NCBI GenBank assembly: GCA_039802205.1
Contig: JBDRWD010000004.1
Span: forward strand, 11,229-75,228
DNA length: 64,000 bases
Source of the DNA: a candidate division WOR-3 bacterium
GTDB lineage: Bacteria; Hydrothermota; Tepidihabitantia; SM23-42; JAOAFX01
Reading direction: 5' to 3'
Shown: positions 1 to 56,618 of the stretch, piece after piece
Position numbering within the stretch: position 1 is the stretch's first letter
How the letters are laid out: each line of letters starts with the position of its first letter
The notes under the pieces: generated by a model
The model's database searches: none
Seen by the model: only the letters and a program-made list of their open reading frames with translations
Told to the model about the DNA's origin: nothing
Position numbers and translations under genes: made by a program

Positions 1-152
1 CACTTCGTTCCATTGTGGAGAATTATATGCTTGATATAATGTTCAACCTTCCAAATTTATCTGGAATTGAAAAGTGTATCATTACCCGGGAGGTGATTGT
101 CAACAATGCACCCCCAGAATATGTGAAGACAACCAAACGGCGTGCGCAGTAA
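1..152 (+). CDS. clpX: ATP-dependent Clp protease ATP-binding subunit ClpX, 3' fragment. Only the C-terminus lies in the window.
   Basis: Frame-3 translation reads ...LRSIVENYMLDIMFNLPNLSGIEKCIITREVIVNN..., which matches the conserved ClpX C-terminal segment (GLRSIVE...LD.M..LP). The stop codon TAA is at 150-152. Confidence 0.75.
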   Translation, partial: LRSIVENYMLDIMFNLPNLSGIEKCIITREVIVNNAPPEYVKTTKRRAQ

Positions 153-27658: not shown

Positions 27659-29578
27659 TTATTTAATAATTACCACCTTTTTGACTTCTTGATGATCATT
27701 AATCCTTGAAGAGATAAAATAAACCCCATTGGGAAGCTCAGGCAAAGTTAGTGCATATTCGCCAGGCGGATAAGATTTTCTCAGGTTCCATATTCTCCGT
27801 CCCAGAGTATTATAAACTGAAATTTCCACCGCGCTAGTTTGGCAAAGTCTAAGATTGATTCTAAGCATCCGGGCTACGGTTTGGGTGGTGATATTGTTTG
27901 TCTTGATGGTTGCTTTAGCCAGTTCTTCGAGAGAAACCGTAGATGGCAACACCGGTAAAAGTAGATGAGAGGGAAGCGCGGGTGTCCGGTAGACTTTCTG
28001 GGTAGCCACCAGAAAATTGGGGTCATCCCTTCTAAAAGGAGCGCCGGTATTGGGATTTTTTTCAAATCTTGGATAATTAGAGGAAGAAATAATTACCCTT
28101 AAGCGATGTCCGGTATTAAATACCTGGGCAGTGCTCCATAAGTCAATATTGAATGTGTCAGGTACATTAGGAATTAACGAATCCTCTCTATCGAATCCAT
28201 GTCTGTGCCGTGCCATTAGAATATTGTCGGTTACCAAAATTGACCTGCCATCAGGATAGACATCAGTAACTCTTATCGCCCAGTCAGTATCATAGCGGTC
28301 AGAAGCCGCATAGAGAACGAATTTTAATTTACCGATCACGGTCAAAGGCGAGGTTAGTGGCGGTGTTGAGAATATTAGAACATCCGACCGGTTCTCAATT
28401 GGTCTCTGGTCGATCGGACCGTAACCATGAGTGAGTCCGATGAACTCTCTACCACCATAGGTTGTACAGGGATTTGCCGGGTCATAGATAAAGGTATCAA
28501 TCGCAAATGTAGTTGGGGGTAGGGTATCAAGCAGGTGGTTATCCCGGAGATAATACTTTTTATACACAACCTGGGGCAGGGGCCAGGTGTCAGCCTCAAT
28601 CCAGCGGTTCCAGTTTGTCGTATCCTGGGTATCACAATCTCCCATTAGGTAGAATTTGACTTTAGGCGGCGGAATCGGACCACCTCCTTCTTTCATCCAG
28701 TAATCATACCAGTCCAATAACATCTGAATAAAACTCAGTTCATCCATTTCGGCATTCGGTGGATAGACCAAGTCTCCCTGTTCCCTTGTTCCCCAGGCAT
28801 CACCATGCCCCCAGGGTCCGATAAACAATTTTTGGTTATGAAATCTTTTCTGCAATTCGCTGAACGCCTCAAGCACACCGTCTGTATACATATCATACCA
28901 GCCCTCAACATGGAACATTGGATAATTCGCGACATTGTATTTTTGAGAAAGATCGACGATTGACCAGCGGTTACAATAATTTGGATAATTACAAACCGTA
29001 TCAATAAGCCAGGGTGTATCAACACCGTGTAGCCAGGTTTCAACAAGTGCCTTCCTGAATTCGCCACCGGTGAATGCACAATCACGATAAAGATTCGGTG
29101 CCGCAACCATCGGTGCACAGCAAACAAGATGGGGAGGCAGTGCGCCTGCTGCATAATATTGGGTCATTCCATGGGCAGAGGCGCCGATCATTCCAACCTT
29201 TCCATTACACCAGTTTCTATTTGCCACCCATTCCACCGCATCATAGCCGTCCTGTAGATCCCCCCAGCCATCAGTCCAGAAGACCATCGGTTCACCTTCG
29301 GAATCACCATAACCCCGTAGGTTTTGAACCACAAGGGCATAACCCATTATATCACAGATCAAAGTGATATAAGTATCATCCCAGCCCCTTCCATAAGGGG
29401 TTCTCTGTAATAATGCCGGTGCCTTCAGTATCGGGTTGTTCCAGAAAGGACGATAGATATCAGTCCCCAATCTCACGCCGTCTCTCATCGGTACACCAAC
29501 GCTATCGGTCTGATAGCCAAACGCCGATACGCTGAAAAGCAAAAACAGACATAAAAAGATTATGTTTTTATTTTTCAT
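27659..29578 (-). CDS. CocE/NonD-family (S15 X-Pro dipeptidyl-peptidase-like) hydrolase with a T9SS C-terminal domain.
   Basis: RTPYGRG...GYALVVQNLRGYGDSEG..GMIGASAHG, a GxSYxG-like nucleophile elbow. The C-terminal domain ends ISVYNTLGRRI...GVYFISSR. RBS AAGGAGG precedes ATG 29578. The stop lies 2 nt from the stop of the convergent M28 gene. Confidence 0.8.
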   Translation of the reverse strand: MKNKNIIFLCLFLLFSVSAFGYQTDSVGVPMRDGVRLGTDIYRPFWNNPILKAPALLQRTPYGRGWDDTYITLICDIMGYALVVQNLRGYGDSEGEPMVFWTDGWGDLQDGYDAVEWVANRNWCNGKVGMIGASAHGMTQYYAAGALPPHLVCCAPMVAAPNLYRDCAFTGGEFRKALVETWLHGVDTPWLIDTVCNYPNYCNRWSIVDLSQKYNVANYPMFHVEGWYDMYTDGVLEAFSELQKRFHNQKLFIGPWGHGDAWGTREQGDLVYPPNAEMDELSFIQMLLDWYDYWMKEGGGPIPPPKVKFYLMGDCDTQDTTNWNRWIEADTWPLPQVVYKKYYLRDNHLLDTLPPTTFAIDTFIYDPANPCTTYGGREFIGLTHGYGPIDQRPIENRSDVLIFSTPPLTSPLTVIGKLKFVLYAASDRYDTDWAIRVTDVYPDGRSILVTDNILMARHRHGFDREDSLIPNVPDTFNIDLWSTAQVFNTGHRLRVIISSSNYPRFEKNPNTGAPFRRDDPNFLVATQKVYRTPALPSHLLLPVLPSTVSLEELAKATIKTNNITTQTVARMLRINLRLCQTSAVEISVYNTLGRRIWNLRKSYPPGEYALTLPELPNGVYFISSRINDHQEVKKVVIIK

Positions 29579-29617
29579 AATGACCTCCTTATTCTTAACC
29601 TGGTTTATAATCATCGT

Positions 29618-32044
29618 CTATTCAATCTTTATTATTTTTTTCTTAATTTCTCCTATTTTACTTCCTTTTAATACAAAAAAGTAAATGCCAGATGGCAGAA
29701 GATTGCCATCCTGGTCTAATCCATCCCAGTTTAGGGTTGTATTTTTCTCTCTCAATGGACCAGAAAATAACCGCCGAACAGATTGCCCTAATGCATTTCT
29801 AATTTCACATTCAATGTCTGTCTTAAATTGAAGACTTATGTCAATTTGAATTCGGTCGCGAAATGGATTTGGTCCTAATGATATCTGGATATTCTTTTTA
29901 TTTTCGGTATTTTTTTCTTCTACAAAATACCCAATCGTATCAACCTGTAATTCCACATAATTGGAATAAAGCGAATGATGACAAGCCGATTTACTTTGAC
30001 GATAAGCAAGCACATGTGCAATCCACTGTGAATCAGCTGGCAATAACGGTACTTTTTCAAGATTCTTATGTGGCAAATCAGTATACCATTCAGGATAATA
30101 TTCATTTATCTTTCTTTTATTCCATTCTTTCAGATAAGCAACATGGATTGAATCATCAGGATAATGTCTTTTTACATCCCCTTTTATGAAAGCCAGAACA
30201 ATATCCCAGATTTCTTTAAAAGACAACGGGAAATCCCATTTAGACTTTGCTACAATCCGCGCAATGATAGCCCCAATCAAACCCGGTATTTTATCATAAG
30301 GATACCAGCACATACCATTGCCCACAAGCACACCTGCCATCCCTTTAAAAGGCAAGGGCTCTATTGAATAGGCATAAGCCCGACCAGGTAATGCTTCTTT
30401 ATAGTAACCATAAACATAAATAATATAATCCCTTGTCCAGCCAGGTTTTAAGGAAGGCAATGAACTGGCATCAAAACCTAAATCAATCTCATCCCCATGA
30501 TGCATAATTACAAAACAATCATCAACTCCTTTTAATAACGGCTGGACATCACCATATTTTGTTGCATTTCCAAAAACCGCAGGGAAATCATTATCAACAA
30601 GTTGATGATAATGATACTCACCAGGATATTTACCATCTTTAGAATAGTAGGCACCATAACCATAGTAATGCAAGTCTGCATATTTTAATGGCACCTCAAA
30701 TATTGCATAATCAGTGTGGGTATTTTCTTCTATCCAGACCTTATCCACATAGACGACCTCATCAAATGTAATCCGCAAACGATGGTCATCAGTCAGAAAG
30801 ATTGACCTCCCTTTTTTATCATAGAGTGGAAAGACCATCGTCTTACTCGTCCCTGCAGGATAACCACAATACCCGATTTTTTTCCAGCGTCCATCCTTGC
30901 CAATCACCTCAACCTTAGGGAATTTGATAGTCCTCCCTCTTTGTTTCAAGCGGTAACGCAAACTCACATAGTCATAGACATCATCGTCAGAAAACCGTGT
31001 GGAACCATTGAGGAATAAGACTGCCTTTGCTGGATTCATTAACTCACCAAGGTCAAACTCAATTATTAAAGGATCATTGAAAGAAAAAGGCACATAGTTT
31101 CGGTCAGTTTCTTTTATATAATTTAACACATCCTTTCCATCAACCGTGCGCGCGGCAATCGGCAATTTCTTCTCAATGGTTGCAAAAATTTTGAATGGAG
31201 GTGGTGGAAAGATTGCAGCTTCATTAGGATAAATAGCCACCCCTTCAGGATGGTCAACCGCCAGGAGTTTGACCTGGTCAATATATGAAACCTCAGGTTT
31301 CATCTCATTCAGTTTAATAGAAATAATTCCATTATCTTTCGTCTTGATCTGATGGGAAGGAATCTTAAGATATTCATCAGGGTCGATGGGCATATAAATA
31401 TTAAACCCGGCTATTCTATCTACCCATAATCCCAGATTGGCACTGGCGATCACATCACCAACAAATTCATATTCCTTACCATTCCAGGAAAAGAGCAAAG
31501 GACATGAACCTTTATAAGCCTCAGCTGCCAAGAAGGTATAGGAACTATCATTTATAATCCAGTCAATGGTATCACTCGCAGTACAAACCCAGGATAACAA
31601 TGTGTCAGTATCTCCACTGATCGCCGGGCTATAGAACCAGTGAGAACTATCTCCCCTTGTATCATAAATAAATAATTGAGCAACAGGATGGTATGTACCA
31701 GCCCTATGGCCATACCATCTGAAGGTCATCCGGGCAATTTTATTAATAGGTTCATTTATTCTAAAACGATACAATTGGGTCACAAATCTTGTGGTATCTG
31801 GATTATATGTAATCCACCACAATGTATCAAAAAAAGCGATTGCATTTTTTTCTTCTGGAGTTGCAGGTTGATAACCAGGGTTCCCAGGTTTTAGTTGAGG
31901 CGGTGCCCGGCTGTCTGAGGGATTCTTCCATGCCTCACTTCCAGGGCTCTGGATTGTATAGATAATCTGACTCCAGACTGGGGAGGTAAAAAATAACACA
32001 ATCATTACCACCCCTACAAGGATAACAAGATATTTTTTGGCCAT
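29618..32044 (-). CDS. Secreted protein of unknown function with a T9SS C-terminal domain.
   Basis: A signal peptide is predicted to be cleaved at VWS|Q. No recognisable catalytic motif was found. A clear C-terminal domain is present: NPFRDR...IRNALGQSV...SGIYFFVL. Start at ATG 32044. Confidence 0.6.
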   Translation of the reverse strand: MAKKYLVILVGVVMIVLFFTSPVWSQIIYTIQSPGSEAWKNPSDSRAPPQLKPGNPGYQPATPEEKNAIAFFDTLWWITYNPDTTRFVTQLYRFRINEPINKIARMTFRWYGHRAGTYHPVAQLFIYDTRGDSSHWFYSPAISGDTDTLLSWVCTASDTIDWIINDSSYTFLAAEAYKGSCPLLFSWNGKEYEFVGDVIASANLGLWVDRIAGFNIYMPIDPDEYLKIPSHQIKTKDNGIISIKLNEMKPEVSYIDQVKLLAVDHPEGVAIYPNEAAIFPPPPFKIFATIEKKLPIAARTVDGKDVLNYIKETDRNYVPFSFNDPLIIEFDLGELMNPAKAVLFLNGSTRFSDDDVYDYVSLRYRLKQRGRTIKFPKVEVIGKDGRWKKIGYCGYPAGTSKTMVFPLYDKKGRSIFLTDDHRLRITFDEVVYVDKVWIEENTHTDYAIFEVPLKYADLHYYGYGAYYSKDGKYPGEYHYHQLVDNDFPAVFGNATKYGDVQPLLKGVDDCFVIMHHGDEIDLGFDASSLPSLKPGWTRDYIIYVYGYYKEALPGRAYAYSIEPLPFKGMAGVLVGNGMCWYPYDKIPGLIGAIIARIVAKSKWDFPLSFKEIWDIVLAFIKGDVKRHYPDDSIHVAYLKEWNKRKINEYYPEWYTDLPHKNLEKVPLLPADSQWIAHVLAYRQSKSACHHSLYSNYVELQVDTIGYFVEEKNTENKKNIQISLGPNPFRDRIQIDISLQFKTDIECEIRNALGQSVRRLFSGPLREKNTTLNWDGLDQDGNLLPSGIYFFVLKGSKIGEIKKKIIKIE

Positions 32045-32074
32045 ATTACACCCCTTTTTATTTTTGTCCATTTT

Positions 32075-33745
32075 TTATTTCAACTTGATAACCTTTCCTA
32101 TCTTTATGCATCCCCCATACTCAAACTTAACAAAATAAACGCCCGCAGGTAATTTGCGATCCGAATCATCAGAACCGTCCCACACAACCGTTGACTGTTC
32201 ACCGTTTACCGTTAACCGAGAAAGATCTTTAACCATTCTACCGCTTACATCGTATATCGCAAGGCTGAAGCCTTGCCCGACATTTCCGTTTGGATTTTGG
32301 GATTTGGTGCTTGGGATTTGAAATTTAATAACACAGTGATTCTGGAATGGATTCGGTAATACGTTGAGCGAGATTATCATATTTTTCGTCTTGCTTTGTT
32401 CATGGATACCGGTCGTTGCCTGTAATGCCTTCCAGACATTCAACCTTCCCCAACCATAATTATTATTCGGATATGGTGCACCAGGAGCAGGTCTATCTGC
32501 ATTATTGAGCAGAATATTATAAATCTCAGTAACTGAAAGATTTGGATTCTTCTCAAAAAGTATTGCTACAGCACCGGTGGCATGGACACAGGATAATGAA
32601 GTTCCATGGATTGTTGTGTATTGCTGATTGAGCCAGGCAGTTCTTATACTATAACCAGGTGCGCACAAATCCGGTTTGGTCAAATTCCAGTCATTCCGAT
32701 ACCAGTATGTAGTATCATTCCAAGGGACACTATCAGGTGCTGGACCACGCGAAGAAAACGATACGATTGTATCATTGACATTCGTTGCCCCGATGCCCAG
32801 CACCGTTGGATAGTTGCCTGGAGTATTTGTAGTCATTGAACCAGGACCGGCATTTCCAATTGAAAAGACTGGCAAAATTTCAAGTGATTTCAGGGTATTA
32901 CAGATATCCCACCAAGTGAGGTCAAATTGATTTGAACTCCCCCAGGCATTGTTAATTGCCCTAATATCAAAACCGGAATCCACTTTTAAAGTAGCGAACC
33001 ACTGTAATGCAACAATTGGGCTAACATTACCTCCGATCATTGCAACACATAATTTTACATCTGGGGCTACACCGATATCATCGGTAAACGGACCCAATCC
33101 ATCACCACCACATATAATACCAGCACAGGCTGTGCCATGACCATTGTCATCGTATGGATATGGGATACCATGCCAAAAATCCCGCCATTTTATCAACTTA
33201 CCGCCCCGCAATGCGGGATGGGTTGTATCTAGTCCAGTATCAAGCATACCGACTATTATACTATCGCCAGTATATCCATAATACCAGCAGGAATCCGCCA
33301 TTATTCGCTGAATGTTCCATTCAGGAGTGCGCGATGTTGTTCCTGATTCTTCTATGATGGGAATTGGTTTGACTTCAGGGATATGGGATATCAATCTTAC
33401 CGACGGATGACGGGCAAGTTCTTTTATAACTCGCACACTCGCCCTTAAATATATCCCATTCACAATCCAGAATTGCAAAACAGAATCTATTTCCCCGGGA
33501 AATCTTTTCAAAAACTCCATAATTGGCTTCTGGCTATCTCTGGCGATTGACTTGAATACTTCTGCCTTTTGTTTTATGGTCAGGTCTCCAAGTGTATTGT
33601 CAGGATAAGGTTGATTGATAATAACTAAAACCTCAATTCTTGTATCGTTGCTAATCTTTATTAGTTGTTCTTGTAGTTGTGGTGAAATGTTTTCCTGTCT
33701 TGCTTCCAATCCAAATCCAACAAGTATTAATAGAACTAACCACAT
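32075..33745 (-). CDS. S8 subtilisin-family peptidase with a T9SS C-terminal domain.
   Basis: GMLDTGLDTTHPAL (Asp), GHGTACAG (His), GTSLSCVHATG (Ser). The C-terminal domain ends NPFQNH...LAIYDVSGRMV...GVYFVKF. A signal peptide is present and the RBS is GGAGGA. Confidence 0.85.
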   Translation of the reverse strand: MWLVLLILVGFGLEARQENISPQLQEQLIKISNDTRIEVLVIINQPYPDNTLGDLTIKQKAEVFKSIARDSQKPIMEFLKRFPGEIDSVLQFWIVNGIYLRASVRVIKELARHPSVRLISHIPEVKPIPIIEESGTTSRTPEWNIQRIMADSCWYYGYTGDSIIVGMLDTGLDTTHPALRGGKLIKWRDFWHGIPYPYDDNGHGTACAGIICGGDGLGPFTDDIGVAPDVKLCVAMIGGNVSPIVALQWFATLKVDSGFDIRAINNAWGSSNQFDLTWWDICNTLKSLEILPVFSIGNAGPGSMTTNTPGNYPTVLGIGATNVNDTIVSFSSRGPAPDSVPWNDTTYWYRNDWNLTKPDLCAPGYSIRTAWLNQQYTTIHGTSLSCVHATGAVAILFEKNPNLSVTEIYNILLNNADRPAPGAPYPNNNYGWGRLNVWKALQATTGIHEQSKTKNMIISLNVLPNPFQNHCVIKFQIPSTKSQNPNGNVGQGFSLAIYDVSGRMVKDLSRLTVNGEQSTVVWDGSDDSDRKLPAGVYFVKFEYGGCIKIGKVIKLK

Positions 33746-33843: not shown

Positions 33844-35190
33844 TTAAAATACTACAAATTTTTTCGTAAAGCTTTCTCTTCTATCAGGATAAAATTTAAT
33901 AAAATAGCATCCTTTCACTAATTTGGGAAGTTCTATGACCGAAGAGCAAATATCACTTTTCTCAAAGACTTTTCTACCGAGGGCATCAAAGATTTCAATT
34001 TTATTATATCTCTCTCTGTTTCCAAGGTTAAATTGGATTCTTTTGCCTGACGGGAAGATAGTAGGTGAACTCTGATTATTCAATGCAATATCTCGCTTTT
34101 CCTCAACCGCTACATTCAACGGCGTATATCTGAATGCGGATAATCTTGTGCCACCTGCATAACCCCATCTTGAATTGAACATATCCATTCCCAATGGTGA
34201 ACAACCCCAGGGACTGTTATCAAATATCACAGTATCCACAAGCCATTGATTTCCACTGTTGGTCGTTTTTAAGAAGATACTAAAATGGCTTCCCTCCCAG
34301 CCGGCACGATTACCACCGCCAACGGCAAATCCATTCTGATTATCAACAAATTCAATCGCATATAAGCCATATTTACCAATGGATACCGATGGTCCCATTA
34401 CTTCAACCCAATTGTTTCCGCCATCGGTTGTTCTGAAGAAAATTCCGGGTGATGCAGAATCCCTTAATCCGCAGACCCAGCCATTGAGGTTATCAATAAA
34501 ATGGACACCATAAAATTGATACATCGCATTTGAAACTTGTGCGGTCCAGCTGGTCCCACCATTTGTTGTATGGAGAATCAATCCATTTATTCCCTGATGA
34601 TTTATTGTGTCATAATCACCACCCACAATCCAGCCCTCATTGGGATTGATAAAATAGATGCTTTTTAAAGAACCGGAGACTGGTGCACTCTGGGTAGTCC
34701 AGGAAGAACCACCGTTGGTTGTTTTTCTAATATCGCTGTTTGCACCGGCAATCCAGCCGGTATTCGCATCAAGGAAGAATACATCATCCCACATCTTACC
34801 GATGAATTCAAAAGTCAAACCATAGATATTCGTCCAGGAATTACCGCCATCAGTAGTTTTGTAAACAACTGCTGCGGGAAAGAGATTAGCTATTATTCCC
34901 ATTGCTGTAAGATAGCCGATACTGGTATTGACAAAATCCATCCCGAAGACAAACATGCACTGGTTGATGGTCCAGGGACGTATCTCCTGCCAGGTATTAC
35001 CGCCATCCGTCGTTTTATAAATAATCCCTCCCACCTGGTCTCTCACACCACAAAGAATACCTATCATGGAATCAGGCGCTGCGGCATCCAGAAATCCATT
35101 ATCTGTTGGCTCATAATGGCGTGTTTCCCATCTTGATATGCCAAAGAGCCCCCATGTGAGAGTAACGTACATTATAAAAAATTTTTTCAT
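33844..35190 (-). CDS. BNR/Asp-box beta-propeller protein (Ycf48/sortilin-like) with a T9SS C-terminal domain.
   Basis: Six repeats of the pattern YKTTDGGNTW / TTNGGSSW / TTNGGTSW / TTDGGNNW, plus a signal peptide. The C-terminal domain ends IEIFDALGRKV...GCYFIKF. RBS AAGGAGGAATT. Confidence 0.7.
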   Translation of the reverse strand: MKKFFIMYVTLTWGLFGISRWETRHYEPTDNGFLDAAAPDSMIGILCGVRDQVGGIIYKTTDGGNTWQEIRPWTINQCMFVFGMDFVNTSIGYLTAMGIIANLFPAAVVYKTTDGGNSWTNIYGLTFEFIGKMWDDVFFLDANTGWIAGANSDIRKTTNGGSSWTTQSAPVSGSLKSIYFINPNEGWIVGGDYDTINHQGINGLILHTTNGGTSWTAQVSNAMYQFYGVHFIDNLNGWVCGLRDSASPGIFFRTTDGGNNWVEVMGPSVSIGKYGLYAIEFVDNQNGFAVGGGNRAGWEGSHFSIFLKTTNSGNQWLVDTVIFDNSPWGCSPLGMDMFNSRWGYAGGTRLSAFRYTPLNVAVEEKRDIALNNQSSPTIFPSGKRIQFNLGNRERYNKIEIFDALGRKVFEKSDICSSVIELPKLVKGCYFIKFYPDRRESFTKKFVVF

Positions 35191-35364
35191 AATTCCTCCT
35201 TGTTTTTCAGATTTTTAAAGCCATTGTTTTCTGTTTATAGTTAATTTTAATTAAAACTATGCACTCGTCAACTACTATTTTATCGCCCAGTGTGTCATTT
35301 TTTTAGCAATTCAAGGGCTGAAAAGAGTGAAATTACCAATACATTAAGCGTGAATTAATAATTA

Positions 35365-35392
35365 TTGACCGATTTAAAAAAATTACTATAAT
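35365..35392 (+). promoter_or_regulatory. Sigma70-like promoter for the regulator gene.
   Basis: TTGACC (35365-35370), a 16-nt spacer, then TATAAT (35387-35392). The ATG at 35403 lies 10 nt downstream with no Shine-Dalgarno sequence, so the transcript is near-leaderless. Confidence 0.4.
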
Positions 35393-35402
35393 ATTCCCGC
35401 AT

Positions 35403-37643
35403 ATGGCTAACAGTGATATTGAATTTAAAAAATTGGTCGTCGAGGAGTATTTAAAAAACGGTTCTTTAAGAAGGACCGCAAAAAACTTCGGGATTCATTA
35501 TTTAACGCTTTATCGATGGGTAAAAGTTTATAAAGTATTAAAAGACCGCTTTTTCGTATCCGCTTATAAAATTCCCTGGAATAAGACAAAAGAAACATTG
35601 GAAAAAGAGATTGTATTTTTGAAAGAAAAGAACCCCAATATTACTATAAAAAATACCCAGGAGGTTTTGAGAAAAAGAGGGATTAAGGTCTCTTGCCATG
35701 CAATCTGGTCAATATGGAACCGCTATGGCTATGCGGGAGCCACGAAAAAGACATCCGAGATCAATGACAACCATCCAGGTATCAGTGCCAATGAGATACA
35801 ACAAAAATTGGCATTAGCATCAAAACTATTCAATGACGGAAAGATCAGAGAAGCAGCAGAGATTTTAAATAGTGTACCTCTTCTACCTAAAAACCAATTA
35901 TTGACTAAAATCCCGGACCAATTTTTGAGTCTGCCGCGGCGCCTGGAAAAAAATCTTGCGCTATTTGGAAAGATTCCGATTGAAGAAAATTTAAAAAGGA
36001 TGGATAGTTTATATAACGAGGCGAAGAAAAAAAGTTTATTCTATTTAGCAATTCGGGCTGGTTTGGCAGAACTTGCTTTGCTCTCCTGGAAGGGCGATCT
36101 GGTAAACCAGCAAAAGATTTTAAAAGAATTAAAGAGTTTTTTTAAAATTAAGAAGAGAAAGAGAATTGCTGCTATGGAATTTAATCTTTTCTTCACCATT
36201 CTCATCGCCGAAGCCAATCTTTATATCGATCTTTTTAAAATTGACAAGGCATATTATCTCGCCCGAAACTGTCATTTAAGACTTAGACGGCGGAAAAACC
36301 AGGATTCTAATCTCATATTACACCTTGCCCGGCTCTATGTCCGTCTGGGTGAAATAAAAAAAGCGGAATACTGGTATCAACAGGCATTGGTTGGGATGTC
36401 GGATGAGCAAAAACGAGAGTTAAATGCACAATTAGCCCTGAATATTCATTTTATGAAGGGTGAATACAAACAGGCACTGGAGTTATGTAAGGATCCTAAC
36501 CTCCCGGAATGGATCCGCATGGCTCTTCCTTTAAGGTTTAAAAGTCTTTACTATTTAATCAAAGGAAATCCCAATCTTGCGATAGAAACTGCAACCAAGA
36601 GTTTGAATCTTTCAAAAGAGCAGGAATTGCCCCGTGATATATTTAATTCATATTTGACGATTGCTGCAGCGTTTAATGCTATGAACGAAAAAGATCGAGC
36701 AATGATGATTTTAAAGAATTTGAAAAGGTACATAGAAAAATTTAAGTTAACAGTCCAGAAAAAAATGTTACAAATAATTCTCAAAGAAAATTTAGGATTG
36801 TCCGATGGTTTTAATCTTCCGATTTTGAAAATTGGTTTACTTTTGCAAAAAAATAAATATAAGCAGGCATTACTTCTGGCAAGAAAGAAAGGGTTGATTA
36901 CAATCTTTTATCGTTATATATTCTTTATCTCCCAACCAATAACAGATCTATTGGCTAAAGGCAAAAGTACTGGATTGCCAAAATCAATATTAAAACTGCC
37001 GATATTCAACCAGGAGACAATCACCTTTTATGTAAAATTTATTGGACATCTTACCATAACAAGAAATCAAAAATCTATTAAAGTTAAATTAAAACCCAAA
37101 GATGCGGCGTTGTTGATACATCTAAGTCTTAAATTGAATACCCCGGATAGTTGTATCTATCTGGACGATTTATGCAGAAATTTCTGGCAAAATCAAAAGA
37201 CTGCACACCGAAATTTGTCTCATTCGTTGAATAGAATAAAAAAACAGTTAAATATCCCTGGTCATTATCTTGAAATGGGTTGCGAGGCAGGTGTTTTTGG
37301 TCTGATAAATCGAAATTTATTCTTTCTTACCGACTATCAAGATATGTTACGGGCGTTATCACAGGCAAAAGCCTTAGCACGAGCCGGTGCGTGGGAACTT
37401 GCAAGAACTGAATACCTAAAGGCATTCGCACTATTCCGCGGCGAACCATTAAAAAAGAACTTCGACCAATGGTCGGTGGACTTAAGGTATAGAATTTTAA
37501 CCACGTTAGAGATTGAAGGCATTAATTTTGTCCGTGAATGCCTTGTACGGGGTGATAGAAATTCGGCTTTGAAAATATTAAAAAGAATTCTGAAGATGGT
37601 TCCGGATTCATTAGAGGCAAGAAAAATCCTCGCGAACCTGTGA
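35403..37643 (+). CDS. Multidomain transcriptional regulator: an N-terminal IS3-OrfA-like HTH, TPR-like repeats, and a C-terminal SARP-type winged helix with a BTAD domain.
   Basis: The N-terminus KKLVVEEYLKNGSLRRTAKNFGIHYLTLYRWVKVYK resembles the IS3 OrfA/HTH_28 helix-turn-helix. The C-terminus F.VKFIGHLTI...KLKPKDAALLIHLSL...NLSHSLNRIKKQL then FLTDYQDML..EYLKAFALFRGEPL...ILKRILKMVPDSLEA matches the OmpR-like plus BTAD architecture of AfsR/DnrI (SARP) regulators. Confidence 0.6.
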   Translation: MANSDIEFKKLVVEEYLKNGSLRRTAKNFGIHYLTLYRWVKVYKVLKDRFFVSAYKIPWNKTKETLEKEIVFLKEKNPNITIKNTQEVLRKRGIKVSCHAIWSIWNRYGYAGATKKTSEINDNHPGISANEIQQKLALASKLFNDGKIREAAEILNSVPLLPKNQLLTKIPDQFLSLPRRLEKNLALFGKIPIEENLKRMDSLYNEAKKKSLFYLAIRAGLAELALLSWKGDLVNQQKILKELKSFFKIKKRKRIAAMEFNLFFTILIAEANLYIDLFKIDKAYYLARNCHLRLRRRKNQDSNLILHLARLYVRLGEIKKAEYWYQQALVGMSDEQKRELNAQLALNIHFMKGEYKQALELCKDPNLPEWIRMALPLRFKSLYYLIKGNPNLAIETATKSLNLSKEQELPRDIFNSYLTIAAAFNAMNEKDRAMMILKNLKRYIEKFKLTVQKKMLQIILKENLGLSDGFNLPILKIGLLLQKNKYKQALLLARKKGLITIFYRYIFFISQPITDLLAKGKSTGLPKSILKLPIFNQETITFYVKFIGHLTITRNQKSIKVKLKPKDAALLIHLSLKLNTPDSCIYLDDLCRNFWQNQKTAHRNLSHSLNRIKKQLNIPGHYLEMGCEAGVFGLINRNLFFLTDYQDMLRALSQAKALARAGAWELARTEYLKAFALFRGEPLKKNFDQWSVDLRYRILTTLEIEGINFVRECLVRGDRNSALKILKRILKMVPDSLEARKILANL

Positions 37644-37991
37644 TTTCTCTGGGTCCACTCCACTTTTTGTCAAATCATTTTTATGCGCTGGATTATTAGA
37701 TGTAGCCGCACCCTTCAGGGTGCGAGATACCTTGGGATTTAAAAAAATTATCCGCAGTCTAAAGCCTGCGCCTACCATTTACCGGTTACCACCCAAGAAT
37801 TTCAAATTTATGCAAGGCAAAAGCCTTGCCCTACAAAAGTACCCAGCGCTAAATCATTGATTACCCTTACAAATTTTATCCATGAGTTTCATCGCTCCTT
37901 CATGAGATATAAAAAAATATGGATAGGGCTTAGATGATTTCTTCCTTGACAAATCGCTATTTTTATTTAAAATTATATAACTATTCCATTT

Positions 37992-38855
37992 ATGGACATT
38001 AATCAATATCTTACCGAGAAGAAACAGTTGGTGGATGCGGCGCTGAAAAAATACTTCAGTGATCGTAACCAATTTTTTGAAGTTATGTATTACTCACTTG
38101 ACCGGGGTAAGAGGATAAGACCCATCTTAACTATTGCCAGTTATGAGGCAAATGGAGGCACCAATGTTGAGGAGATAATGTCTATTGCCTGTGGTCTGGA
38201 ATTGATTCATACCTACTCGCTTATCCATGATGACCTTCCCGCAATGGATAATGATGATTACCGCCGGGGTAAGGAATCTGCCCATAAAAAATTCGGTGAA
38301 GCAATGGCTGTGCTTTCTGGGGATGGATTATTTGCCTATGCTTTTGAATTGTTCACCGAGTCAGAAGACCATCTTAAAGAGCGCTATCGGGTGATAAAAG
38401 AAGTAAGCCTGGCGGTTGGGCCTAAGGGGGTAGTTTATGGCCAGGTGCTGGATATCCAATCCCATCCTGAAATCAATCCAAAGATGTTGCGTCAGATTCA
38501 TCTTAATAAAACCGCTAAATTCATTGCGTTGGCGATAAAAGCTGGCGCAATTATGGCCCAAGCTCCTGAAGCACGCATAAGAATTCTGGAAAAAGGAGGA
38601 GTATATCTAGGGATATTATTTCAATATACCGACGATATTCTTGATGTAACCGGCAAAAAAGAAAAATTGGGCAAAACGCCCCAAAAGGATATTCTCCAAG
38701 AAAAACTCACTGCCCCAAGAGTTTATGGACTCTCTGGTGCTCGATTCCGTGCGCAAAGATATGCCTGCCTGGCAAAGAATACTTTTAACCAATTGGGCAA
38801 GAATTTTGAGATATTCAGTGCGCTCACGGATTTTGTCCTGAATCGGTCGTTTTAA
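37992..38855 (+). CDS. Polyprenyl diphosphate synthase (FPP/GGPP synthase family).
   Basis: First Asp-rich motif LIHDDLPAMDNDDYRRG and second Asp-rich motif QYTDDILD. Confidence 0.9.
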   Translation: MDINQYLTEKKQLVDAALKKYFSDRNQFFEVMYYSLDRGKRIRPILTIASYEANGGTNVEEIMSIACGLELIHTYSLIHDDLPAMDNDDYRRGKESAHKKFGEAMAVLSGDGLFAYAFELFTESEDHLKERYRVIKEVSLAVGPKGVVYGQVLDIQSHPEINPKMLRQIHLNKTAKFIALAIKAGAIMAQAPEARIRILEKGGVYLGILFQYTDDILDVTGKKEKLGKTPQKDILQEKLTAPRVYGLSGARFRAQRYACLAKNTFNQLGKNFEIFSALTDFVLNRSF

Positions 38856-38916: not shown

Positions 38917-40776
38917 ATGGCCCTCCTTGAAAAGATAAACGGACCTGCAGATTTAAAGAAATATCCGGTTGAGCAACTCCAGGTGCTTGCCCGGGAGATA
39001 AGAGAGGAAATCATAAAAACCGTATCTCAAAATGGAGGGCATCTGGCACCTTCACTCGGGGTTGTGGAATTGACGCTGGCAATTTATCGGGTTTTTGATG
39101 CCGAAAGAGATAAAATAATCTGGGATGTGGGACACCAGACCTATGCCCAGAAGTTGATCACGGGAAGAAGAGATAAATTCCACACCTTGCGCACATATAA
39201 TGGGATTAGCGGATTTCCCAAACGCGAAGAGTCAAAATATGATCATTTCAATACCGGTCATTCTTCTACTTCGCTGTCGGCCGCTGCTGGTTTTGCCATT
39301 GCCCGGGATTTAAAAGGGGAAGATTATCATATCATCAGTGTTATCGGTGATGGTTCTCTGGGTGCAGGCATGGCATTTGAGGCTTTAAATCACATCGGAC
39401 AATTGAAAAAGGATGTTATCGTTGTTTTAAATGACAACGAGCGTTCGATCGGGGAGACGGTGGGAGCATTATCTCAGTATCTGACGAAGATTATAACAAC
39501 CCGCACTTATAACCGGTTCCGTGACGACCTTTGGGTTTTCTTAGGTAGATTTCCACCTTACATCCGTGATCGGGCTCGAAATCTTGCCAAAAGAATTCAG
39601 GAGGGTATGAAAGGTTTATATTCTCCATCGGTGATCTTTGAGGAACTTGGTTTTCGTTATATAGGACCTTTAAATGGTCATCAGTTGGGCGAATTGATTG
39701 ATACATTGTCACGGGTTAAAGAGATGCACGGACCCAGGTTGGTCCATGTGGTGACCAAGAAGGGGAAGGGATATAAGATTGCCGAAGAAGCACCCGAAAA
39801 ATTTCATGGCATTGGTCCATTTGATATTGCCACGGGCGAAGAAAAACAGAAACTCAATTCGTATACTAAAGTCTTTGGCGATGCCTTGGTGAAATTTGCG
39901 GAAAAGAACAAAAAAATTGTGGCGATTACCGCGGGGATGTGTTTGGGCACTGGTTTAAAAGAATTTTCATTAAAATTTCCGGAGCGGTTTTTTGATGTAG
40001 GTATCTGTGAACAACATGCGGTAACGATGGCTGCGGCACTGGCGCTTGAGGGCTATATTCCCGTTTGTGCAATATATTCGACTTTTCTCCAGCGGGCCTA
40101 TGACCAGGTTATACATGATGTTTGCCTTCAAAAGGCGCCTGTGATATTTGCGATTGATCGGGCCGGACTGGTCGGTGAAGATGGTCCTACTCATCACGGT
40201 CCGTTTGACCTTTCTTTTCTAAGTTGTATACCCCATATGGTAATAAGTGCACCGAAAGATGGGGCAGAACTGGTCGCCCTGTTGAAGACCGCGATTGAGT
40301 ATCGTGAAGGTCCTTTTGCCATTCGCTATCCCCGCACTTCGTGTTCCTTACCGGAGAGTTCAGATATCCAGACTGTGGAAATTGGAAAATGGGAAATTCT
40401 CCATCCGGGACAGGAATATGCCATTATTGCCTGCGGGACGATGGTCAAAACAGGTCTGGAGACAATAAAATTATTAAAGAAAAATAGAATAAATCCTTAT
40501 CTCATCAATGCTCGTTTCGTTAAACCCCTTGATTTTGAAATGCTTGATACACTGATTGCAAAATTAAAGTCAGTTTTTGTTCTTGAAGAAAATTCTTTCA
40601 TAGGTGGTTTAGGAAGTGCTGTGGCGAATTATCTGGTAAATAACAAATTGCCGGTTAAAGTCCACACCATTGCCCTGCCAGATCGTTTTATACCTCACGG
40701 ATCAAGGGAAGTTTTACTCAAGGTGGTTGGGCTTGACAGTGAGACTATAGCAGATAAAATTATGAAATCGTTATGA
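38917..40776 (+). CDS. dxs: 1-deoxy-D-xylulose-5-phosphate synthase.
   Basis: The TPP-binding region GHSSTSLSAAAGFAIARDL...GDGSLGAGMAFEALN is present, with a transketolase-like C-terminus. The length of 619 aa fits. Confidence 0.95.
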   Translation: MALLEKINGPADLKKYPVEQLQVLAREIREEIIKTVSQNGGHLAPSLGVVELTLAIYRVFDAERDKIIWDVGHQTYAQKLITGRRDKFHTLRTYNGISGFPKREESKYDHFNTGHSSTSLSAAAGFAIARDLKGEDYHIISVIGDGSLGAGMAFEALNHIGQLKKDVIVVLNDNERSIGETVGALSQYLTKIITTRTYNRFRDDLWVFLGRFPPYIRDRARNLAKRIQEGMKGLYSPSVIFEELGFRYIGPLNGHQLGELIDTLSRVKEMHGPRLVHVVTKKGKGYKIAEEAPEKFHGIGPFDIATGEEKQKLNSYTKVFGDALVKFAEKNKKIVAITAGMCLGTGLKEFSLKFPERFFDVGICEQHAVTMAAALALEGYIPVCAIYSTFLQRAYDQVIHDVCLQKAPVIFAIDRAGLVGEDGPTHHGPFDLSFLSCIPHMVISAPKDGAELVALLKTAIEYREGPFAIRYPRTSCSLPESSDIQTVEIGKWEILHPGQEYAIIACGTMVKTGLETIKLLKKNRINPYLINARFVKPLDFEMLDTLIAKLKSVFVLEENSFIGGLGSAVANYLVNNKLPVKVHTIALPDRFIPHGSREVLLKVVGLDSETIADKIMKSL

Positions 40777-43700
40777 TATTTTTTGTCATCTTTGTTTTCA
40801 ACCAATTCACTATGCCCTACGAAACAAAAGCCTTTATTACTTCTGATGGCGAATACATAGTATATCTCCGCTATTATCAAGGGGAATTTATTGGGATTGA
40901 CAGTATTATTCCCGTAAATGACTACTTTGCTATCGGTTTGAAAAAGAAAAATCAAAAAATGATGCTCAAAGAATTACAAAGTGATTTGATGAAGAAAGGG
41001 GGTTACGCAAATAAAGGATTGTTTGGAACCATCGAGATACCTTTGCCCAAGGGCGGTTTTAGCGACTTTATGGGTGAAACCGGAAAACTTGATGTGGGTG
41101 GTTACATTAAAATCACACTGGGGGGCACGGAAACCTTTTATTCTAATCTGCCAGCGGAACAACAGCGACCTTCACTTCTGCCGGAATTAAAAATGGAACA
41201 GGAAATGGCGGTAAATCTTGATGGCGAAGTTGGTGACCGTATGCGGGTTTTCATTGACCACAATTCTACAAGAGTTGACGAAACTCAAAATAAGATTCGT
41301 GTTACCTATAAAGGAAAAGAAGACGAAATACTTCAGGAACTCGAAGGAGGTGATACTCAACTATCAATTCCCGGCACAAGTTACACAGGTGATATTCCAG
41401 CACACCAGGGATTGTTTGGTTTAAAATCCACCGCCAAGTTGGGACCGGTGGATATCGTGGCAATTGCATCCCGGGAGCAAACCCAGTACAGTGAACAGGA
41501 GATCACCGGGGGCATTGAAAGTATGTATGATACAATCTGGTCTAAAGATTATGCTAAGCGACAATTCTTCTGGCTGGGGACAACTGACTCCATTATTGAA
41601 CTGAGGGTTTATATCGATGATGGAAATAACGCGAACAATAATAATGGGATTACGCGCTATGCCCGGGTGTATCTTGACCTGAACGATGATAATGTCCCCG
41701 ATGATACTCTGGAAAAAGAAGAAGGTTTTTTCACCTTGAAATACGAAGGTTTAGAACAGGATTATCAGTTTTTTGGGCGCCGGGTCAATATCATTGAGTT
41801 AAAAAATGGACTTTATAATAATCTGGAGGCATTGGGAGTTTACTACCGTAAGATCAACAGTCTGGGGCAGGAAGATACGGTGGGTTTCATTGGCGCGGAC
41901 ACATTGTGCTTGAAACTGATCTGTCCACGAACCTCACGGGTGACTTCACTAGCCTGGCGCAATTATGAGTTAAAAAACTATTATCCCGTTGCCAGTCCAG
42001 GGGAGAAGGTTGACACCCTAATGATTTATCACGATGTTGGGAGTGGTATTGATGAATACATCTATCAAGGGCGCACCCTGTTGTCGATACTCGGACTGGA
42101 TAAGGACAACAACAACGAGGTAGATCCCTATGGAGGATTTGGCAGTGGAGGATACGATTTAAACCGCGGGCTGCTTATTTTTCCAGAACCAATGCCGTTT
42201 GTGAATAGCGGACTGCCTGAGCCTGATTCCGAGGTTTACACTAATCCGTTTTATTCTATCCATCGCGGTAAGTACTACATCTACACTAAAACCTTTCAGG
42301 TAAAGAAAACTTTCCCTATCCCATTCAACACCAAACATGTGCGAGTTTATGTCAATGATGTAGAACTTGATCCTGCGGAATACATCGTGGACTACGATAT
42401 GGGAAAAGTTGAAATTATGAGGCCCATCTCGCGTACCGACCGCGTCCGGATACAGGCAGAATACAGCGCGCCTTTTTCCGCGACACAAAAAAGCCTAATC
42501 GGTATGCGGGCAAATTCGAAAATCTTCGGGGAAGGAAGCATTGGTTCTTCTTTTTTCTACCGGACCGAGTCCTATCAAATGGCACCATACGAGCATATCC
42601 GCTTTAACGAGGAGCCTTCCAATCGGATGGTCTGGGAGATGGATTTTGCCGTTCCAGGTAAAATCCCTTATTTAACGGAATTTATTGATAATCTGCCTTT
42701 GGTACAAACCGAAGCCGAATCAAAATTCAATATCAATTTTGAAGGGGCATATTCATTCTCTAATATCAACTCCCGGAATGCTGTATATCTTGATGATTTT
42801 GAGGCTACCTCCATTAATTATTCAGCGGTTTTATCAAAGAGTTATTGGTATCCCTGTTCTAAACCGGTGAATTGCGATACAAGCAATTTTGCCCGGAGAC
42901 GTCTGATCTGGTTTACACCTACCGGTGGTAATGTTTTTAAAATGGAAGATATTTATAATAATCCTACCGATCCCCAAGCGATTGCCGAGGTTTTACAAAT
43001 TCAGTTCACTCCGGATAACAGACAATCGTTTGCCGGCTTAACCCAATACCTAACAAGTGTGAATCTCGACGAATGTGAGAATATTGAATTGATCATAAAT
43101 GGCAGTGGAGGGAAGGTCCACATCGATGTTGCTGAGGAAATCAGCGAAGATCAGTTACGGCGCAACAAAAAAGGTGAAATTGTTGGATTGGGCACCTTTG
43201 AAGATGAAGATAACAATCCACGCAATTTTTCTTGGGATGCGAATAATGAAGATCGGGGATTGGATAATGTTTTTGGTAATGATGCTGATAATGTCCCCGG
43301 AGATGATGGTAATGATGATTATATTGAAAATGACTATTATCACGGCGGCATAAATGGGACAGAAAAGAACAGGATCTGGGATACCGAAGATATTGATCGG
43401 AATGGCATTTTTAATCTCAGCACAAATATTTACTACAGTTTTTCAGTACACCTGGATTCGAGCCGATATCTGGTAGAAGGGGGATTGAAAAACAACTGGA
43501 AGATGTTTCGGATACCATTGAAAGATTCCCTGGCCCGCGATACCGTCTTTGGTCTTCCTAACTGGCAGAATATTAAATTTGTCCGTATCTGGTTTGATGA
43601 TTTTACTGCGCCCCAGACCATTTATCTTCATAAACTTAATTTTACGGGCAGTCGCTGGAAGAATTATGGTGTAGTATCTGAAGATTCGCTCAATCCGGTG

Positions 43701-56132: not shown

Positions 56133-56618
56133 TTACCAGTTCGTCAGAATTACCGTCACGAGTCTTTCGGCGGTCCTTTTCATTGCCTCTCTTATTCCTT
56201 TTTCTTCTTCTGTAGTATAGGTAGCCCAATCAGCAACATCGCCCTGCCAGAAGATCGTATTTCTTACCCGGTCATAGACAGTTACCGAGAGCTTGATGGT
56301 AATTTTATATTGCGAAACTGATAAGGCACCGGCATAAACATAAGGCTCTTTGGCAAAGCCGGTTACTTTACCGATAAGGACGATATCAGCCTGTTCTTCA
56401 CTTACGAGTTGGAGGCCGGAATTATTTCGAAAGGCTTCGAGTGTCGTTTGGGTGGCCAGTTCGTCAAGTCCGGTCTTGTAGGTTTGATTTTCAAAAATTT
56501 TTATGTGCACACTCCGTATGTAACTGGGCAGTAGCGAGCGAGTGGAATAGCCGCAGCATCTTAAAGCACAAAGAGGGATTGTAAGAAATAGCATAAAAGA
56601 TACTCTCCAATATTTCAC
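56133..56618 (-). CDS. Lipoprotein, LptE-like candidate.
   Basis: Signal peptide with a Cys-containing lipobox-like LRCCGY. The ~160-aa size and the pattern CGY..R...LP...V.I resemble LptE. Weak. Confidence 0.4.
   Translation of the reverse strand: MKYWRVSFMLFLTIPLCALRCCGYSTRSLLPSYIRSVHIKIFENQTYKTGLDELATQTTLEAFRNNSGLQLVSEEQADIVLIGKVTGFAKEPYVYAGALSVSQYKITIKLSVTVYDRVRNTIFWQGDVADWATYTTEEEKGIREAMKRTAERLVTVILTNW

Follow-up and report, generated by a model that had tools for sequence, protein, structure and literature searches.

The DNA analyzed here is a 64-kb window of a metagenome-assembled genome (MAG) of candidate division WOR-3, and all coordinates below are positions in this window unless a locus is named. 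It encodes a regulator with two predicted DNA-binding ends, divergent from a gene for cargo of the type IX secretion system (T9SS). We found that a predicted SARP module, consisting of an OmpR-type winged helix and a BTAD bundle, forms the C-terminus of this protein behind a TPR solenoid, and that a conserved (n)GACACA heptamer, newly found here, lies at a fixed place between the regulator and cargo promoters. The reversed domain order and the T9SS context are demonstrably unusual. With a probability that we put at roughly 60%, the protein would be a ligand-responsive one-component activator of the adjacent cargo operon; this reading draws on sequence, structure models and analogy with characterized SARPs. 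The maximum Kyte-Doolittle value of the protein (over 19 residues) was 1.52, without any hydrophobic stretch able to span a membrane. The features of the locus are collected in Table 1.

Table 1. Features of the regulator locus and of the divergent cargo genes (window positions)
Feature	Position	Strand	Remark
Regulator ORF (open reading frame)	35403..37643	+	746 aa, ATG start, cytoplasmic
Bipartite paired-like helix-turn-helix (HTH), residues 1-115 (predicted)	35403..35747	+	PAI-like 4-51, RED-like 64-115
All-helical TPR-like solenoid, residues 129-518	35787..36956	+	presumed sensor/interaction domain
Conserved linker, residues 519-537	36957..37013	+	consensus KGKxTxLPxxxLxLPxFN
OmpR-type winged helix-turn-helix, residues 538-643 (predicted)	37014..37331	+	beta sheet, three helices, beta-hairpin wing
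BTAD helical bundle, residues 644-746 (predicted)	37332..37640	+	last helices score also as TPR_14
Regulator promoter TTGACC-16-TATAAT	35365-35370 + 35387-35392	+	11/12 consensus positions
-10-to-ATG stretch ATTCCCGCAT	35393..35402	+	10 nt, with family motif TTTCC(G/A)C
Candidate operator heptamer TGACACA	35291..35297	-	reads towards cargo; 67 nt from regulator -35
P1 cargo promoter, -10 TAAAAT	35277..35282	-	without -35 at normal spacing
P2 cargo promoter TTGACG-16-TAAAAT	35244..35271	-	near-consensus; this orthologue group only, absent from paralogue loci
Divergent BNR/Ycf48-like beta-propeller, 448 aa, with T9SS C-terminal sorting domain (CTD)	33844..35190	-	GGAGG Shine-Dalgarno
S8 subtilase, FlgD_ig/CTD protein, S15 X-Pro dipeptidyl peptidase, all T9SS-tailed	27659..33745	-	beyond propeller gene

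The C-terminus of the regulator is a predicted SARP module

Because TPR matches swamped the full-length searches, residues 530-746 were excised from 36 family members and modelled and searched apart. The model of this segment of the window protein reached a pLDDT (predicted local distance difference test) of 94 and a pTM (predicted template modelling score) of 0.87. Through Foldseek searches against the PDB, we found that the top six matches were all SARP modules, with 206-211 aligned columns and root-mean-square deviations (rmsd) of 3.1-3.9. Among them were AfsR (8k60 and 8hvr; E 3e-8 to 2e-7, TM score 0.74-0.76, rmsd 3.1-3.6) and EmbR (2fez and 2ff4; TM score 0.69), and the matches from rank 7 onward had E>0.02, at least four orders of magnitude weaker, and covered OmpR-type winged helices only. 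In the predicted model the winged helix is packed directly against the BTAD bundle, as in the AfsR and EmbR structures. The recognition helix of the winged helix is well conserved in the family and carries the signature RNLSH..R.KK.L.

In the Pfam scan, BTAD (PF03704) matched residues 644-731 with 19.0 bits (E 0.0019), below its gathering score of 22.1, and Trans_reg_C (PF00486) gave no match in the regulator even at E≤10, so that the C-terminal call cannot be proven by hidden Markov models (HMMs) alone. Among the relatives, BTAD matched 7/7 close ones and 17 of the 36 C-terminal segments (E≤0.1; best E 2.1e-5), and weak Trans_reg_C matches were obtained in eight of these segments (E≤0.1; best 1.3e-3). 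The C-terminal family profile gave only marginal matches to PDB entries, to the DNA-binding domains of DrrD, CadC and PmrA (E 0.05-0.2), and profiles built from the single sequence or from seven sequences gave TPR/14-3-3 noise and one marginal CovR match only. The initial annotation, made from the letters and the ORFs of this DNA, had called an OmpR-like winged helix with BTAD here and had proposed HMM searches for BTAD, Trans_reg_C and HTH_28, of which only HTH_28 (at the N-terminus, below) passed its cut-off. At Pfam thresholds the C-terminus thus fails both SARP models; this outcome is overturned by the fold and by the weak BTAD matches in the relatives, and the SARP identity is settled by the match of the pLDDT-94 model to AfsR and EmbR. 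These results indicate that the C-terminus, as modelled, is a genuine SARP module that has diverged past the Pfam thresholds.

A transposase-type paired-like domain and a TPR solenoid precede the SARP module

At the N-terminus, HTH_28 matched residues 8-44 with 27.0 bits against a Pfam cut-off of 25; HTH_28, HTH_23 and HTH_Tnp_1 matched 27 of 28 relatives, and HTH_32 matched 25. When the family profile of residues 1-118 was compared with the PDB, residues 66-118 resembled the RED subdomain of Sleeping Beauty (5unk, E 1e-4), residues 4-51 a PAI subdomain (6urs, E 2e-3), and residues 5-51 the IS3-OrfA-like protein Cgl2762 (2jn6, E 2e-4). The IS481, IS3 and IS630 models of NCBIfam covered only residues 7-127, with 21-32 bits against cut-offs of 100-224. 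Conservation in the family is highest in this domain, where W39, E67, K74, E75, P78, S97 and W105 are nearly invariant. Pfam and NCBIfam scans revealed no DDE/RNase-H-like catalytic domain after the HTH, and no element-like terminal inverted repeats flank the regulator, the sole long inverted pair being two promoters. The N-terminus is predicted to be a bipartite paired-like DNA-binding domain of transposase type, a domesticated transposase domain that now serves a regulator, and the HTH that the initial annotation had compared to IS3 OrfA is more exactly a PAI+RED domain.

The full-length AlphaFold model had a mean pLDDT of 79, with the solenoid mostly at 75-90. Its layout comprises helical bundles at residues 2-46 and 64-107, an unbroken solenoid at 129-518, a beta-sheet/three-helix/beta-hairpin unit at 540-643 and a five-helix bundle at 644-745; the region between HTH and SARP module is entirely made of TPR-like helices in this model, and neither Pfam nor NCBIfam scans of the regulator detected an NB-ARC or other AAA-type ATPase. 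TPR_14 scored 32.5 bits against a cut-off of 23.5, other TPR models fell just under their cut-offs at residues 270-440, and Foldseek with the full-length model returned TPR solenoids only, the first being MalT domain III (1hz4), with NprR (5dbk) at a TM score of 0.56. The full-length profile of 93 sequences was likewise dominated by TPR proteins in the PDB comparison (consensus TPR up to E 3e-59). Both the above-gathering TPR model and the helical-repeat fold bear out the TPR-type repeats that had been noticed from the sequence. Since the best fold match of the solenoid is MalT domain III, it probably senses a ligand or partner. In the linker that joins it to the SARP module, P526, P533 and F535 are nearly invariant among 93 relatives.

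The regulator belongs to a large family with several copies per genome

A word-indexed search returned six clusters, all full length, with 99, 73, 73, 67, 39 and 33% identity. The named relatives were candidate division WOR-3 MAGs, and their proteins are labelled "hypothetical" or "helix-turn-helix domain-containing" at NCBI. An exhaustive profile search of 1.84 billion representatives gave 1458 matches at E≤0.001, of which 254 reached E≤1e-10 and 174 reached E≤1e-30; among the best 150, the majority were 700-800 aa long and matched end to end. We aligned 93 full-length members, which were 20-74% identical to the window protein and shared conserved positions across all three regions; a word-indexed search with this alignment returned TPR proteins only and added neither members nor names. 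This census is based on metagenome-derived sequences. The initial annotation had considered that the gene might be a degenerate OrfA fusion lacking conservation elsewhere. The 174 cluster representatives refute this, and we reject a decayed OrfA fusion because relatives with as little as about 20% identity conserve the full-length architecture.

A scan of one genome per GTDB species with a 7-member alignment and two peptide patterns, which under-samples the family, detected 17 further loci (called L plus a number below), and four genomes had two matches each. The hosts were labelled as WOR-3/Stahlbacteria MAGs, two Cloacimonadota, one Desulfobacteraceae and two "bacterium". The regulator family is large, unannotated and previously undescribed, and was found here mostly in WOR-3 and Stahlbacteria. 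For the loci labelled Cloacimonadota (L013 and L019) and Desulfobacteraceae (L016), the sequences may have been mis-binned or mislabelled, or the family may be distributed more widely.

Genomes carry several copies of the gene, in one case at least three. In L008 (2530-11468), two modules stand in tandem: a BNR gene with CTD (-), regulator 1 (+), an SBBP beta-propeller gene (-) and regulator 2 (+). The second of these regulators shows 37% identity to the query profile and shares the promoter arrangement, TACAAT-GTTTCCAC-ATG. A second paralogue in L009 (10465-13147) begins at the equivalent of residue 55, without the first HTH, and may be a truncated variant or have a mis-called start; its divergent neighbour is a CTD gene with AGACACA-N8-TATAAT in front. 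Two candidates for a second paralogue in the window proved unrelated, namely the 745-aa TPR ORF at 56615-58852 (-; BLASTP E 0.08) and the 779-aa ORF at 5919-8258. PADLOC found no match of the locus to a defence system.

The regulator is divergently paired with T9SS cargo genes

The product of the divergent gene of the window matched PSII_BNR (4e-17) and Por_Secre_tail (7e-6). It and the three T9SS-tailed genes beyond it run in the same direction with gaps of 98, 3 and 3 nt, and these four minus-strand genes therefore probably form an operon. They belong to a 23-kb cargo island of eight consecutive T9SS-tailed genes (12254-35190), in which four plus-strand genes (1157, 1512, 1543 and 885 aa; the 885-aa product is an M28 peptidase) converge on the four minus-strand genes; the regulator stands at one edge.

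The regulator keeps its genomic position in orthologues. The upstream neighbour was on the opposite strand in 21/21 loci. Pfam detected Por_Secre_tail or FlgD_ig in 14 of the 17 upstream genes with an intact C-terminus, and a custom HMM found a T9SS tail in 15 of these 17 compared with 24 of 125 other ORFs of the same contigs. The neighbours were mostly beta-propellers (BNR, Kelch, FG-GAP, LVIVD and PQQ), with one C25 gingipain-like protease; the latter, in L016, is separated from its regulator by a 529-nt spacer without a recognizable heptamer. Close orthologues retain both flanks of the window locus, and the relatives with 39% and 33% identity retain only the divergent T9SS-tailed neighbour. 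The initial annotation had seen this protein as positioned to control the adjacent minus-strand cargo genes. Control of cargo is supported, though not proven, by the divergence, by the T9SS tails and by the heptamer near the cargo -10 (below); the immediate target would be the BNR beta-propeller gene, and the proteases lie further along the probable operon.

The regulator gene has a near-consensus promoter immediately before its start codon

The near-consensus promoter that had been read from the sequence, TTGACC-16-TATAAT in an almost leaderless arrangement, was correct in coordinates and description. Because the -10 sits 10 nt before the ATG, and with the start site assumed at the usual distance, we infer a leader of about 2-5 nt, and the mRNA would be leaderless or near-leaderless. 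The start codon has no Shine-Dalgarno sequence. In five orthologues the TTGAC, the spacer length, the TATAAT and the next 10 nt to the ATG were almost invariant, and TAnAAT was conserved. Across family loci, including paralogues at 27-40% protein identity, the strict layout (TTGACn-15..18-TAnnnT, 4-14 nt and an in-frame start) was present in 15/21, and a looser -35 added four, giving 19/21 loci with an in-frame TTGACA-17-TATAAT, compared with eight strict and 11 loose fits among 119 other genes of the same contigs. This layout and the architecture conserved in the relatives go far past what chance would produce. Leaderless-like promoters are thus present elsewhere in the lineage, that of sprA among them, and are strongly enriched in the regulator family.

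After the -10, the motif (G/A)TTTCC(G/A)C(A)A recurred in about 21 of 23 paralogue loci, and it was not found in the other leaderless-like promoters of the same contigs. The two loci labelled Cloacimonadota kept the TTTCC motif, but their leader was longer and a Shine-Dalgarno sequence was present. This motif may be a feature of the start site or of the discriminator, or it may serve as an operator for autoregulation. In the window, the ATG side without Shine-Dalgarno sequence (35393-35405) and the cargo side with a strong GGAGG (35176-35190) are 212 nt apart, and both modes of translation initiation coexist in this single intergenic region. Rfam gave no match in 35000-38100.

A conserved heptamer precedes the cargo -10 by 8 nt

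The regulator-cargo intergenic regions share a heptamer, (T/G/A)(G/A)ACACA, which reads towards the cargo gene and lies 8 nt upstream of a -10-like hexamer without a -35. In the window, the minus strand reads TGACACA, CTGGGCGA, TAAAAT at P1. With one mismatch allowed, heptamer-N8-TATAAT-like sequences were present on the cargo strand of at least 17 of 22 intergenic regions. The strict pattern ACACA-N8-TAnnnT occurred in seven of 18 non-redundant intergenic regions and in none on the opposite strand, and 2000 shuffles gave a mean of 0.13 and a maximum of 3. In the whole 64-kb window the strict pattern occurred twice (1.6 expected), once on the correct strand of the 212-nt spacer, and over all fetched loci 11 of its 15 matches fell inside regulator-cargo spacers; scanning for the pattern alone revealed the further cargo/regulator module in L009. 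Anchoring on the heptamer aligned the regulator -35 without gaps, at 67-68 nt in 12 loci and at 85-86 nt in six. A weak TTGnnA/TGGAAA element was seen about 40 nt upstream of the heptamer.

SARPs such as AfsR recognize direct repeats, with the unit nearest the promoter placed 8 bp upstream of the -10 and overlapping a suboptimal -35, and two SARP protomers replace the sigma region 4 contact, touching the beta flap, sigma region 4 and the C-terminal domain of the alpha subunit (PMC11301090; PMC10972967). By analogy, the geometry of the heptamer is that expected of a SARP-activated promoter, with a single heptamer only.

Possible mode of action of the regulator

A P1-type promoter combines a good -10 with a heptamer at the position that would substitute for a -35, which suggests dependence on an activator. 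In the activator model that we favour, the regulator would be expressed from its strong sigma-70-type promoter as a leaderless or near-leaderless mRNA, and its solenoid would sense a ligand or partner in the cytoplasm, like MalT domain III and the RNPP regulators. The SARP module would then bind (T)GACACA, take the place of the contact between -35 and sigma region 4 and bring RNA polymerase to the divergent promoter, switching on the BNR beta-propeller gene and probably also the three protease/CTD genes behind it. The N-terminal paired-like domain might provide a second DNA contact, perhaps at the regulator's own promoter. The fixed 67-bp distance from heptamer to -35, together with TTTCC(G/A)C at the start site, suggests that the same complex feeds back on that promoter.

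Several findings weigh against this model. Apart from the sub-threshold BTAD score and the missing Trans_reg_C match, the module is C-terminal here, and described SARPs have it at the N-terminus only (PMC10972967). Two loci depart from the pairing, as L012 has an AIM24 gene and L009 a BNR gene without a detected tail. The SARP sites described in the literature consist of tandem direct repeats that two protomers occupy (PMC11301090; PMC10972967), and a position weight matrix scan found no second heptamer at 11 or at 22 bp upstream, a place usually taken up by an A-tract. The distance of 8 nt to the -10 shifts by 1 nt with the choice of motif edge. The near-consensus P2 should need no activator, and since it lies just downstream of P1, basal cargo expression at the window locus may be independent of the regulator. 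Finally, the second DNA-binding domain, at the N-terminus, could read the heptamer instead.

We advance only tentatively an extended version of the activator model, in which the regulators would be an expanded WOR-3 family with each paralogue hard-wired to one T9SS substrate gene, mostly one for a beta-propeller, through a divergent cassette of fixed geometry. Both DNA-binding ends would bridge the promoters, the SARP module would activate the cargo gene from a monomer site, and the leaderless transcript would be autoregulated. The polysaccharide utilization loci of Bacteroidota follow a similar regulator-per-locus logic, which here would be applied to secreted cargo.

It is rather unlikely, in our judgement, that the same protein and operator region act mainly in repression or autorepression between the back-to-back promoters, with one or both of these shut off until a ligand releases the protein. 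The regulator promoter and P2 of the window are near consensus and need no activator, the TTTCC(G/A)C motif is placed where a bound protein would block initiation, the rigid spacing of 67-68 or 85-86 bp suggests one complex across both promoters, and sites at such a position are more often used by repressors (PMC11301090). Repression fits poorly, however, with most paralogue loci, whose sole recognizable cargo promoter couples a good -10 with the heptamer in place of a missing -35. Characterized SARP modules are also overwhelmingly activators and only a few repress, such as RslR1 on rslR2 (PMC10972967; PMC11301090).

We consider it improbable that the paired-like HTH of the N-terminus reads the heptamer, or that an unrelated factor or an alternative sigma factor does so, with the SARP module bound elsewhere or contacting only protein or RNA polymerase. 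In favour of such readings speak the single heptamer without tandem repeat, the suitability of the most conserved domain for a DNA target common to all paralogues, and the TTGnnA/TGGAAA element, which could be the other half of a bipartite site. Against them, the 8-nt offset from the -10 agrees with the SARP rule (PMC11301090), the winged-helix recognition helix is also well conserved, and the heptamer is specific to regulator genes, as the 11 of 15 strict matches in their intergenic regions indicate. It is very improbable that the gene is a mobile-element relic, or that it truly acts on ispA, dxs and sprA downstream. The transposase matches stay below cut-off and end at residue 127, catalytic domain and terminal repeats are absent, and position and full length are retained in relatives with as little as about 20% identity. 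The downstream genes begin within 39-46 nt in close orthologues and include that for SprA, the T9SS translocon, but the neighbours on this side differ in all paralogue loci, and the window ispA has its own promoter after a 348-nt gap.

Relation to known regulators

The SARPs are viewed in the literature as activators of actinobacterial antibiotic clusters whose DNA-binding module is always N-terminal (PMC10972967). The protein described here is a SARP-module regulator on a new chassis and falls outside the described small, medium and large classes; its host is a WOR-3 MAG, and its neighbours are T9SS cargo, ispA, dxs and sprA, in place of an actinobacterial host and a biosynthetic cluster. With the large SARPs AfsR and PolY it shares the packing of winged helix and BTAD (TM score 0.74-0.76 to AfsR) and a TPR array in the same polypeptide, and its candidate site would be placed likewise, 8 nt before a -10 that has no -35. 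The large SARPs, in contrast, have the order SARP module, NB-ARC/STAND ATPase and TPR, bind tandem repeats, and adjoin antibiotic biosynthesis genes in Streptomyces. The WOR-3 regulator has the module at residues 538-746, lacks the ATPase, adds the N-terminal paired-like HTH, has one conserved heptamer at its loci, and is 14-21% identical to them in sequence.

The small SARPs (ActII-ORF4, DnrI and RedD) and EmbR of M. tuberculosis have the same two-domain DNA-binding and activation module, and copies of the WOR-3 regulator adjoin their presumed target like cluster-situated SARPs. Small SARPs, however, are about 300 aa long with no domain beyond the module, EmbR has an FHA domain in addition, and none of them has an N-terminal HTH or a module placed after a TPR array. 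The central solenoid resembles MalT domain III and the RNPP protein NprR at the level of the fold, and in those proteins it binds the inducing ligand or peptide. MalT, though, has an ATPase and a LuxR-type HTH, the RNPP proteins of Firmicutes use an HTH of the XRE type, and a SARP module is absent from both. Residues 4-51 and 64-118 correspond to the PAI and RED subdomains of IS630/Tc1-mariner, IS481 and IS3 transposases, which differ in their catalytic domain, terminal repeats and mobility.

In Bacteroidota, the T9SS is regulated by the two-component system PorX/PorY and the extracytoplasmic function (ECF) sigma factor SigP, which act on the genes of the secretion machinery. Both that system and the present one concern the T9SS or the expression of its substrates. 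PorX/PorY and SigP, however, are a response regulator system and a sigma factor unrelated in sequence, whereas the regulators here form a multi-copy one-component family paired with individual cargo genes. To our knowledge, there is scant information on how individual T9SS substrates are controlled outside Bacteroidota, and the regulator-cargo pairing offers a testable lead. Our literature search found no paper linking WOR-3 with type IX secretion, and none linking SARP or BTAD with the T9SS.

The known SARP module appears here in a new setting, as the C-terminal part of a different chassis from an uncultured phylum, and the candidate operator occupies the place that the cryo-EM structures of AfsR account for. 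If the model is confirmed, activation from 8 bp upstream of the -10 in place of a -35 would be an ancient and portable mode and not a speciality of Streptomyces, and if each paralogue indeed serves its own cargo gene, this would be the first functional context for a reversed-architecture SARP module outside Actinobacteria. About 170 protein clusters now called "helix-turn-helix domain-containing" or "hypothetical" at NCBI would gain a functional label. Because the promoters are sigma-70-like, work in a heterologous host should be able to test the system although WOR-3 is uncultured.

Genes and spacer downstream of the regulator

Downstream of the regulator, the window contains ispA, dxs and a gene for a 1813-aa SprA-like protein. 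Between the regulator and ispA lies a non-coding spacer of 348 nt (37644-37991), which only this lineage and the 99% relative have, the 73% orthologues having 39-46 nt. The spacer contains GC-rich hairpins at 37709-37724 and 37812-37830, and 37736-37750 is an exact 15-nt copy of the spacer of the regulator promoter; tblastn gave no convincing protein remnant of a decayed paralogue in it. A 25-nt, 96% copy of the second hairpin is present downstream of a paralogue in L008 (7304-7328). The ispA gene has a putative TTGACA-16-TAAAAT promoter 18 nt before its ATG and no Shine-Dalgarno sequence. The sprA-like gene (40773-46214) overlaps the dxs stop by 4 nt, and its own putative promoter, TTGACA-16-TAAAAT, is contained in the 3' end of dxs, 12 nt ahead of the sprA ATG in a leaderless-like arrangement; the same layout was found in L002.

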